From the NCBI RefSeq assembly GCF_013315695.1, contig NZ_CP054353.1: a stretch of DNA of 64,000 nt; one strand, given 5' to 3'. Source of the stretch: Escherichia coli (lineage in GTDB: Bacteria > Pseudomonadota > Gammaproteobacteria > Enterobacterales > Enterobacteriaceae). This document shows, one piece after another, positions 12,553-15,500 of this stretch (position 1 is the stretch's first letter; every line of letters starts with the position of its first letter). Made by a program: the position numbers.

Positions 12553-15500
12553 TTACCGTGACCTTTGGCGGTCAGGCTGTATTTCACCAGTTCGACGTTA
12601 TAGTCAGTGATGCGGTTAATCGCCTGATAGACGGCATCGACCGGACCGTTACCGTTGGCGGCTTCTGCTTTGACTTCTTCGCCACAGGCCAGTTTGACGG
12701 CGGCAGTGGCAATATCGTTAGAACCTGACTGCACGCTGAAGTAATCCAGACGGAAATGCTCCGGCTCTTCTTGCTGCTTACCGATGAAGGCCAGCGCCTC
12801 CAGATCGTAATCAAACACCTGGCCTTTTTTGTCCGCCAGCTTCAGGAAAGCGTCGTACAGGTTGTCTAAATTATATTCACTTTCTTTATATCCCATCTCA
12901 TCCATGCGATGTTTCACCGCCGCACGCCCCGAACGAGAGGTCAGATTCAGCTGGATTTGGTTCAGACCAATAGATTCTGGTGTCATGATTTCGTAGTTTT
13001 CACGGTTTTTCAGTACACCATCCTGGTGGATACCGGAGGAGTGTGCGAATGCGCCGCTGCCAACAATGGCTTTGTTTGCCGGGATCGGCATATTACAAAT
13101 CTGGCTAACTAACTGGCTGGTGCGCCATATCTCCTGGTGATTAATGGCGGTATGAACGTTGAGAATATCCTTACGAACTTTGATCGCCATGATCACTTCT
13201 TCCAGCGAACAGTTACCGGCTCGCTCGCCGATCCCATTCATTGCACCTTCCACCTGGCGCGCTCCGGCATGTACCGCCGCCAGTGAGTTGCCAACTGCTA
13301 GGCCTAAATCGTCGTGGGTATGTACGGAGATAATGGCTTTGTCGATGTTAGGCACGCGTTCATACAGGCCGCTGATGATTCCAGCGAACTCAAACGGCAT
13401 GGTGTAGCCCACGGTGTCCGGAATGTTGATGGTGGTGGCACCGGCGTTAATCGCCGCTTCAACCACGCGCGCCAGATCGGCAATGGGTGTGCGTCCGGCA
13501 TCTTCGCAAGAAAATTCAACATCATCGGTGTAATTACGGGCGCGTTTCACCATATAGATAGCGCGTTCGATTACTTCGTCCAGCGTGCTACGCAGCTTGG
13601 TGGCAATGTGCATTGGTGAAGTGGCAATAAAGGTATGGATACGGAAGGCTTCGGCAACTTTCAGAGATTCAGCTGCCACGTCGATATCCTTTTCCACGCA
13701 GCGAGCTAACGCACATACGCGGCTGTTTTTGACCTGGCGGGCGATGGTCTGCACCGATTCGAAATCGCCCGGCGAAGAGACGGGGAAACCGACTTCCATT
13801 ACGTCAACACCCATACGCTCAAGGGCCAGCGCAATTTGCAGTTTTTCTTTCGCACTCAGGCTTGCCTGTAACGCCTGTTCACCGTCGCGCAATGTGGTAT
13901 CGAAAATAATAACTTGCTGGCTCATGGTTTGGGTCCTTGTCTCTTTTTGAGCGCCTCGCTTCGGGCATAAAAAAACCCGCGCAATGGCGCGGGTTTTTTG
14001 TTTGACTGCGTGCTGGCTTAATGCTGAATGCCGCTCACTCGTCTACCGCGCAAAGAAGATGCGTTTAGTAGTAGTAGACCGATAAAGCGAACGATGTGAG
14101 TCATTAAATCAGCTCCAGATGAATACGATATGCTTTTAGAGTTACTGGATACAAAAACGGATGTCAACCCTGACGCAACAAAAACGTTCCGCCAGAGTGA
14201 GTTCTGCATTCGTCAAATTAGCTAATTGTGCTGCGGTGGTTAAAACAAGCGATATTAATTTCTGCTTAACCACCGACGCTTTTCATCGGTTGACATATTT
14301 CAGAATAAATTTTTGCATCTAATCAACGAGGAAAAGGGGGATAAAATGCACGCGTTACAAAACCTATCTTGATGATTTGTATTGAATTATATGTTTTGCT
14401 AATTTTTTGATATTCATTTTGTGAATATTATTGTTCGATTAATGTTAAGAATTAATGCATTAAACATATAAATTAATTATTAAAAAAGCACATTTAATCC
14501 ATTTTGTGGATGATTGAGTATTCGCGGTAGTTATGATTAGATTGTTTTCGCAACAAAAACATTATGGATTATTATGCTGCGGTAAATGACGCTTTACTCG
14601 GCAATGGGTTATGTTTTTATAAGAACCCGTATCTTTATGTTTTCCTAATTTTTCTCATTTTCCTTTTTCTTATTTTATATGCATGATAAATCATATTCTC
14701 GAGGATTATTTCTCTGCATTCCAATAAGGGAAAGGGAGTTAAGTGTGACAGTGGAGTTAAGTATGCCAGAGGTACAAACAGATCAACCAGAGACGGCGGA
14801 GTTAAGCAAGCCACAACTACGCATGGTCGATCTCAACTTATTAACCGTTTTCGATGCCGTGATGCAGGAGCAAAACATCACCCGTGCCGCTCATGTTCTG
14901 GGGATGTCGCAACCTGCGGTCAGTAACGCGGTTGCACGCCTGAAGGTGATGTTTAATGACGAGCTTTTTGTTCGTTATGGCCGTGGCATTCAACCGACTG
15001 CTCGCGCATTTCAACTTTTTGGTTCAGTTCGTCAGGCATTGCAATTAGTACAAAATGAATTGCCAGGTTCAGGTTTTGAACCCGCGAGCAGTGAACGTGT
15101 ATTTCATCTTTGTGTTTGCAGTCCGTTAGACAGCATTCTGACCTCGCAGATTTATAATCACATTGAGCAAACTGCGCCAAATATACATGTTATGTTCAAG
15201 TCTTCATTAAATCAGAACACTGAACATCAACTGCGTTATCAGGAAACGGAGTTTGTGATTAGTTATGAAGACTTCCATCGTCCTGAATTTACCAGTGTGC
15301 CATTATTTAAAGATGAAATGGTGCTGGTAGCCAGCAAAAATCATCCAACAATTAAAGGCCCGTTACTGAAACATGATGTTTATAACGAACAACATGCGGC
15401 AGTTTCGCTCGATCGTTTCGCGTCATTTAGTCAACCGTGGTATGACACGGTAGATAAACAAGCCAGTATCGCGTATCAGGGCATGGCAATGATGAGTGTA

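Follow-up and report, generated by a model that had tools for sequence, protein, structure and literature searches.

The leu operon attenuator and the AT-rich leuL-leuO intergenic region in an Escherichia coli chromosome

The leuA-leuO locus

The stretch of DNA analysed here (hereafter the window) comprises 64,000 nucleotides of the Escherichia coli contig NZ_CP054353.1 (RefSeq assembly GCF_013315695.1) and is identical to isolate AF3 (NZ_OZ547117.1). Its coordinates run along that AF3 record from position 4494092, and the RefSeq gene annotation was taken from the same record. We deal with the part of the window where the leader of the leuABCD operon and the divergently oriented regulator gene leuO face each other. 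Our analysis leaves very little doubt that this locus consists of two adjacent control elements that have already been characterised, the leu attenuator and the AT-rich, presumably H-NS-silenced region between leuL and leuO. The genes and the interval that separates them are as follows.

12354-13925, minus strand: leuA, 2-isopropylmalate synthase, the first structural gene under the attenuator (RefSeq)
14018-14104, minus strand: leuL, leader peptide open reading frame of 28 codons and a stop (translation and RefSeq)
14105-14762, unstranded: leuL-leuO intergenic region (the gap), 658 bp, from the leuL ATG (14104) to the annotated leuO ATG (14763)
14763-15707, plus strand: leuO, a LysR-type regulator (RefSeq)

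The gene order is shared with strain K-12 (leuABCD-leuL / leuO-yabR-ilvIH; yabR and then ilvI are annotated beyond leuO in RefSeq), and the gap measures 659 bp in K-12 vs 658 bp in the window. The leuA gene is 96.1% identical to its K-12 counterpart, and leuO is 97.4% identical at the DNA level, with 2 amino-acid changes. When the 837-base interval between the starts of leuA and leuO was used as a query, it was matched in 5,399 of 5,426 complete E. coli genomes, and the match to isolate AF3 (NZ_OZ547117.1) was 100%. The gap itself was at least 99% identical in 166 genomes, 95-99% identical in 830 and 90-95% identical in 4,396. The closest leuL-leuO haplotypes (99.5-99.7% identity) are those of IAI39, CE10 and SMS-3-5, which we take to be phylogroup F strains; as judged by sequence, the chromosome is of a phylogroup-F-like lineage and its gap haplotype is the phylogroup-F one.

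The leu attenuator

On the minus strand (14104-14018) leuL reads ATG ACT CAC ATC GTT CGC TTT ATC GGT CTA CTA CTA CTA AAC ... TAA, and the encoded peptide is the same as that of K-12. Three elements of the leader matter for what follows.

14066-14077, minus strand: four tandem CUA Leu codons, the ribosome stall site (translation)
14046-14051, minus strand: GCGCGG, the 5' half of the antiterminator (constrained folds)
13970-13999, minus strand: attenuator terminator, whose 13-bp stem closes a 4-nt loop and is followed by U7 (inverted repeat and folding)

The two arms of the terminator (13970-13982 and 13987-13999, 13 nt each) are 100% complementary, and the hairpin folds at -17.9 kcal/mol and ends 45 nt ahead of the leuA ATG. 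The Rfam model Leu_leader (RF00512, gathering score 50 bits) matched the minus strand at 13969-14118 over its full length (model positions 1-148) with 147.5 bits (E = 7.3e-34); the Thr, Phe and Trp leader models gave just 20-28 bits, which is below threshold, and owe even these scores to the terminator that the leaders have in common. For the 170-nt leader as a whole, the folding energy is -55.7 kcal/mol (z = -4.7 relative to 200 shuffled sequences).

The antiterminator would be formed by pairing of GCGCGG with CCGCGC (13987-13992), which lies in the 5' arm of the terminator. In the unstalled fold, GCGCGG is buried in a "protector" stem together with the 5' half of leuL. Stalling was simulated by blocking a ribosome footprint of about 30 nt, with each of the four CUA codons in turn in the A site, and by folding the nascent RNA as far as the loop of the terminator; in silico, the GCGCGG-CCGCGC pairing formed in 7 of the 8 ribosome-masked nascent folds. 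Plain thermodynamic folding of the full leader with the ribosome mask retained the terminator every time, and the antiterminator emerged solely when the nascent transcript was folded without the 3' arm, i.e., in the kinetically relevant state.

To set the leader of the window beside those of other bacteria, species-representative genomes were searched with a pattern that combined a Leu-codon run with GCGCGG. The search yielded at least 120 loci, and Salmonella is not among these listed matches; leuA stood beside the match in 78 loci, from which 75 distinct leaders were aligned with that of the window (76 in total). Among the matches listed, all 76 leaders carry 3-4 tandem Leu codons, three of which were demanded by the pattern, the terminator stem is 95.7% paired with an invariant G+C core across these Enterobacterales leaders, and the two sides of the antiterminator core form standard pairs in 76/76. 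In this last count the independent observation is the partner arm only, since the pattern fixed GCGCGG on the 5' side, where covariation is for the same reason not assessable. The two inner helices of the protector are 98% paired in the same set of listed leaders, with 21 compensatory UA->CG cells at one pair.

The earlier note on this DNA, made from the sequence alone, had described leuL with four consecutive Leu codons followed by a terminator hairpin, and had read the arrangement as classical attenuation. Both elements are present as described, and the attenuation reading is borne out by the Rfam score, the four rare CUA codons, the strong terminator, the antiterminator that depends on stalling in silico and the retention of both structures in the 76 leaders. 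The logic of protector, antiterminator and terminator, as modelled by folding, is of the classical type. In K-12 and Salmonella, read-through in vivo is known to respond to charged Leu-tRNA, and the leader of the window has the same four CUA codons, the same terminator and the same place upstream of leuA as the K-12 and Salmonella leu leaders. Over the interval up to the leuA start codon (13926-14131) it is 98.5% identical to that of K-12, with 3 differences in 206 nt: the single difference in the leuL coding sequence is synonymous (ATT for ATC, Ile26), a second lies 5 nt past the presumed start of transcription (14125) and a third in the interval from the terminator to leuA (13948), and the cores of the predicted helices are untouched. 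The same logic, i.e., a leader peptide in which the amino acid that exerts the control is abundant, alternative 1:2, 2:3 and 3:4 pairings and an intrinsic terminator, underlies the trpL, hisL, pheL, thrL and ilvL attenuators, but unlike in those, the codon run here is leucine-specific.

The attenuator hairpin has an A7 run on one side and a T6-7 run on the other (13946-14000), and can thus be read as a plus-strand terminator too. This symmetry of the A-run and T-run accounts for a weaker Rfam echo on the plus strand (33.7 bits), and the hairpin could, in that orientation, halt antisense transcription leaving leuA.

The AT-rich leuL-leuO gap

The earlier note had put the gap at roughly 650 bp and had called it extremely AT-rich, with long A/T runs. 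Its length is 658 bp, and an AT-content check upheld the description of its composition: GC content is 32.5% in the gap vs 51.9% in the window, the gap is the lowest-GC 658-bp stretch among those sampled in the 64 kb (just 0.06% of them are as low), and the window reaches its longest uninterrupted A/T run inside it (22 nt, 14466-14487). There are 22 A/T tracts of at least 4 nt in the gap vs 6.3 expected (3.5x), and the density of TpA steps is twice that of the window. The composition is not uniform, as the 235 bp on the leuL side (14105-14339), which hold the leu promoter, have 39.6% GC. The most AT-rich part is the following.

14340-14731, unstranded: AT-rich core, presumed H-NS/StpA nucleation and filament region with the leuO promoters and regulator sites (composition and literature)

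GC content in this core is 27.6%, with one 100-bp window at 16%.

The comparison with K-12, which the earlier note had also proposed, gave the same synteny and a gap that is 94.4% identical and is the ortholog of the K-12 gap by synteny, length and AT profile. The 37 substitutions and 1 indel that separate the two (5.8%) cluster at 14400-14437 and 14580-14621, and there is almost no change from K-12 in the leuL promoter (leuLp), in the leuO-proximal 110 bp or in the ribosome-binding site.

A tract of this composition might be the remnant of horizontally acquired DNA, or the product of neutral AT-drift in a long spacer, rather than a selected silencer. Foreign AT-rich DNA is often an H-NS target, leuO itself has 45.8% GC against 52-53% in its neighbours, and most of the AT-rich core aligns poorly between genera. 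However, the divergent leuL/leuO layout, the gap length and the low GC content recur together: among the matches listed, about 45 species of Enterobacteriaceae and Yersiniaceae have a divergent leuO-leuL gap of 427-929 bp, mostly 600-660 bp, with 31-40% GC vs 48-60% in the adjoining leuA. This recurrence argues for an ancient, vertically inherited region. Moreover, the gap diverges half as fast as four-fold sites within E. coli (5.8% from K-12 vs 11.1% at four-fold degenerate sites of seven neighbouring genes), and several of its blocks are conserved across genera. The reduced divergence, together with the recurrent length and AT-richness, points to selection rather than drift, and we regard a foreign or drifted origin as very improbable. 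The divergent pairing seems to be confined to Enterobacteriaceae and some Yersiniaceae, because at the loci of Erwinia, Pantoea, Pectobacterium, Dickeya and Brenneria leuL precedes leuA with no leuO homolog upstream in the DNA examined around each locus.

Nor does the length of the gap, in our view, give any real credence to the idea that it conceals an unannotated small protein or small RNA gene. Three open reading frames can be drawn mechanically (53 aa at 14161-14322 and 40 aa at 14564-14686 on the plus strand, 43 aa at 14142-14273 on the minus strand), and a perfect inverted repeat, CGGTGGTTAA-N22-TTAACCACCG, lies at 14234-14275. None of the three reading frames has a Pfam match, a permissive Rfam scan of 13000-16000 returned the Leu leader and nothing else, and RefSeq annotates no gene in the gap, either in K-12 or in the window strain. 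Across genera, the reading-frame regions and the repeat show some of the lowest conservation in the gap (scores 0-0.4), and the repeat is imperfect already in K-12. The small reading frames and the inverted repeat were therefore rejected as hidden genes or structures, being neither conserved nor matched to any family.

Probable silencing of leuO and a working model

The regulation of leuO has been described in some detail. The gene is repressed by H-NS and StpA, has a distal promoter P1 and a proximal promoter P2, is activated by BglJ-RcsB bound about 57 bp upstream of P2, and is autoregulated by LeuO (PMC3950696, PMC5025477, PMC6698644). Binding of H-NS/StpA and derepression in hns stpA mutants were reported for the orthologous region (PMC3950696, PMC6797219, PMC10981669), and in Salmonella leuO is silenced from an H-NS nucleation site that lies upstream of it, an effect relieved by upstream transcription or supercoiling (PMC6797219, PMC10981669). 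A summary of the promoter relay is given in PMC4264507. By analogy with these orthologous regions, H-NS silencing of leuO and the promoter relay probably apply at the gap of the window as well.

Several points weigh against the view of the locus as a classical attenuator beside an H-NS-silenced region. H-NS binding is not readable from sequence, and so the H-NS step rests on orthology and composition. The published high-affinity H-NS nucleation motif TCGWTWAATT has two one-mismatch matches in the gap (14210 and 14435), and across the window 23 were counted vs 15.2 +/- 3.5 expected, which is not significant. On the side of the attenuator, the outer helices of the minimum free energy fold of the E. 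coli leader are only about 50% paired in other genera, and therefore the conserved part is the inner protector only. In addition, a simple promoter/terminator scanner, whose rules call for a free T-tail and for at least 4/6 matches per hexamer, missed both the attenuator hairpin and leuLp; the hairpin was missed probably because its U-run is taken up in pairing with the A-run, so that the tail is not free, and the scanner was replaced by folding, Rfam and cross-genus footprints. Finally, the promoter relay was established in Salmonella, with the leu-500 allele, and how much it counts for in wild-type E. coli is a matter of debate.

With the attenuator and the silenced region taken together, the locus may work in the following way. 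RNA polymerase would start at leuLp (about 14131, minus strand) and make a leader of about 160 nt that carries leuL. When charged Leu-tRNA is plentiful, the ribosome would clear the four CUA codons, GCGCGG would be covered or held in the protector stem, and the hairpin at 13970-13999 with its U7 tail would form, so that transcription would stop before leuA. When Leu-tRNA is scarce, the ribosome would stall on the CUA codons, and the freed GCGCGG could pair with the 5' arm of the terminator, allowing read-through into leuABCD. On the other side of the leu promoter, H-NS and StpA bound to the AT-rich core would silence the leuO promoters, and this silencing may be relieved or modulated by LeuO, BglJ-RcsB, LrhA and supercoiling from the transcription of neighbours (the ilvIH -> leuO -> leuLABCD relay).

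The leu attenuator and the leuO silencer region are biology that is already known, and the judgement of the earlier note, which had called them expected rather than novel, is a fair one. The main value of the case is that of a positive control: a reading of the raw sequence recovered a textbook attenuator and a model H-NS-silenced locus.

The LeuO site and its alleles

Within the AT-rich core lies one element for which the window strain differs from most other E. coli genomes.

14410-14428, unstranded: probable LeuO high-affinity core site ("site I"), ATATTCA-TTTTG-TGAATAT, ATATTCATTTTGTGAATAT (similarity)

This palindrome agrees at 17 of 19 positions with the 19-bp palindrome of the K-12 cas promoter, ATATTCATACTGTGAATAT, and LeuO site I at leuO was reported to carry a palindrome almost identical to the cas core site (PMC6698644). 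It is probable, from this similarity, that 14410-14428 corresponds to LeuO site I. The allele of K-12 is ATATTGATTTGGTGAATAT, that of IAI39 is ATATTCATTTGGTGAATAT and that of the window strain is ATATTCATTTTGTGAATAT. The arms are perfect over 7 bp (ATATTCA/TGAATAT) in the window, as in phylogroups F and B2, whereas K-12 has ATATTGA, and the K-12 palindrome allele (ATATTGA...) is present in 3,908 genomes. From IAI39 the gap of the window differs by two substitutions, T at 14420 and A at 14611. The first of these lies in the spacer of the palindrome and is common to the window strain and only 4 other complete genomes, and the exact 34 bp over the palindrome (14403-14436) occur in just 5 of the 5,426 complete E. 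coli genomes.

LeuO is a pleiotropic antagonist of H-NS that affects CRISPR-Cas, multidrug efflux and virulence genes, and therefore natural variation in its control region could modulate those traits. Candidate variants in this respect are the phylogroup-F haplotype, the LeuO site with perfect arms and the T at 14420, a rare allele; any effect of theirs is only a possibility.

Promoters, start codons and a conserved upstream block

Conservation across genera was read from a footprint alignment of the window with 19 other genera, and it delineates the following features on the two sides of the gap.

14126-14167, minus strand: leuLp core promoter (cross-genus conservation)
14162-14167, minus strand: leuLp -35 element, TTGACA, followed by a 17-nt spacer
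14139-14144, minus strand: leuLp -10 element, TAACTC, with an inferred start near 14131
14217-14233, unstranded: conserved block TTAGCTAATTGTGCTG, 16-17 bp (footprint), with its centre some 93 bp upstream of the presumed leuL start
14511-14523 and 14531-14541, unstranded: short conserved blocks in the gap (19-genus alignment)
14632-14698, plus strand: leuO-proximal putative promoter region, 60-98% conserved across genera
14684-14692, plus strand: extended -10-like element TGATAAATC, within 14632-14698
14732-14765, plus strand: tandem duplication of a ribosome-binding site and start (direct repeat and cross-genus conservation)

The TTGACA element stands at a constant distance in all 72 leuL loci examined among the matches listed. 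Across the 19 other genera, conservation is 80-99% in 14126-14151, which holds the -10 element and the start, and the spacer to the -35 element is not conserved. The leuL transcription start is presumably at K-12 position 83735, which corresponds to 14131 of the window and gives a leader of about 160 nt. At the other end of the gap, the interval 14632-14698, with its conservation and its -10-like element, is a putative leuO promoter region.

Two details of this part of the locus may have escaped characterisation, and we put them forward tentatively, as possibilities that are rather unlikely to hold: the block TTAGCTAATTGTGCTG may be an undescribed transcription-factor site through which leuLp or the divergent leuO promoters are controlled, and translation of LeuO may start at least partly at a GTG codon at 14745. 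The greater part of the palindrome AATTAGCTAATT lies within the block. Among core Enterobacteriaceae the block is 70-99% conserved and keeps a constant distance of 65-66 bp from the leuLp -35 element, and it is absent from the leuL loci of Erwiniaceae, Pectobacteriaceae and Yersiniaceae that were compared among the matches listed. A comparison by eye with the Lrp consensus, YAGHAWATTWTDCTR, gives agreement at 12 of 15 positions.

As for the start of LeuO, the sequence AAGGGAG-N6-GTG (14745) is followed by GGAG-N6-ATG (14763, the annotated leuO start), and the two lie in a direct repeat at 14732-14765, GGAGTTAAGT-GTG-ACAGT / GGAGTTAAGT-ATG-CCAGA. The GTG has a strong AAGGGAG ribosome-binding site and is in the leuO frame, 6 codons ahead of the annotated ATG. 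The upstream start, either GTG or ATG, and its ribosome-binding site are kept in most Enterobacteriaceae. Some of them, including Kluyvera, Pseudocitrobacter and Kosakonia, have ATG as the upstream start and lack the downstream ATG. Since an upstream start in frame is thus conserved, LeuO may have its start 6 residues ahead of the annotated one, or both starts may be in use, and, if the GTG at 14745 is the true start, the protein would be 6 residues longer than annotated.

Neighbouring features

A second AT-rich tract of the window is the leuO-ilvI intergenic region (15708-16024), with 33.8% GC and 100-bp windows down to 25%. The open reading frame of yabR, of 14 codons, lies inside this tract (15862-15906, minus strand).

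Two differences from K-12 were noted elsewhere in the neighbourhood. The gene setA, which encodes a sugar exporter and in K-12 accounts for about 1.2 kb between sgrS/sgrT and leuD, is absent at 9209-9250, where about 40 bp connect sgrS/sgrT to leuD. Between the thiB thiamine pyrophosphate riboswitch and sgrR, the window has about 1 kb (6254-7263) that K-12 is without, and this segment contains espY2, annotated in RefSeq as encoding the type III secretion system effector EspY2 (coding sequence 6459-7028).

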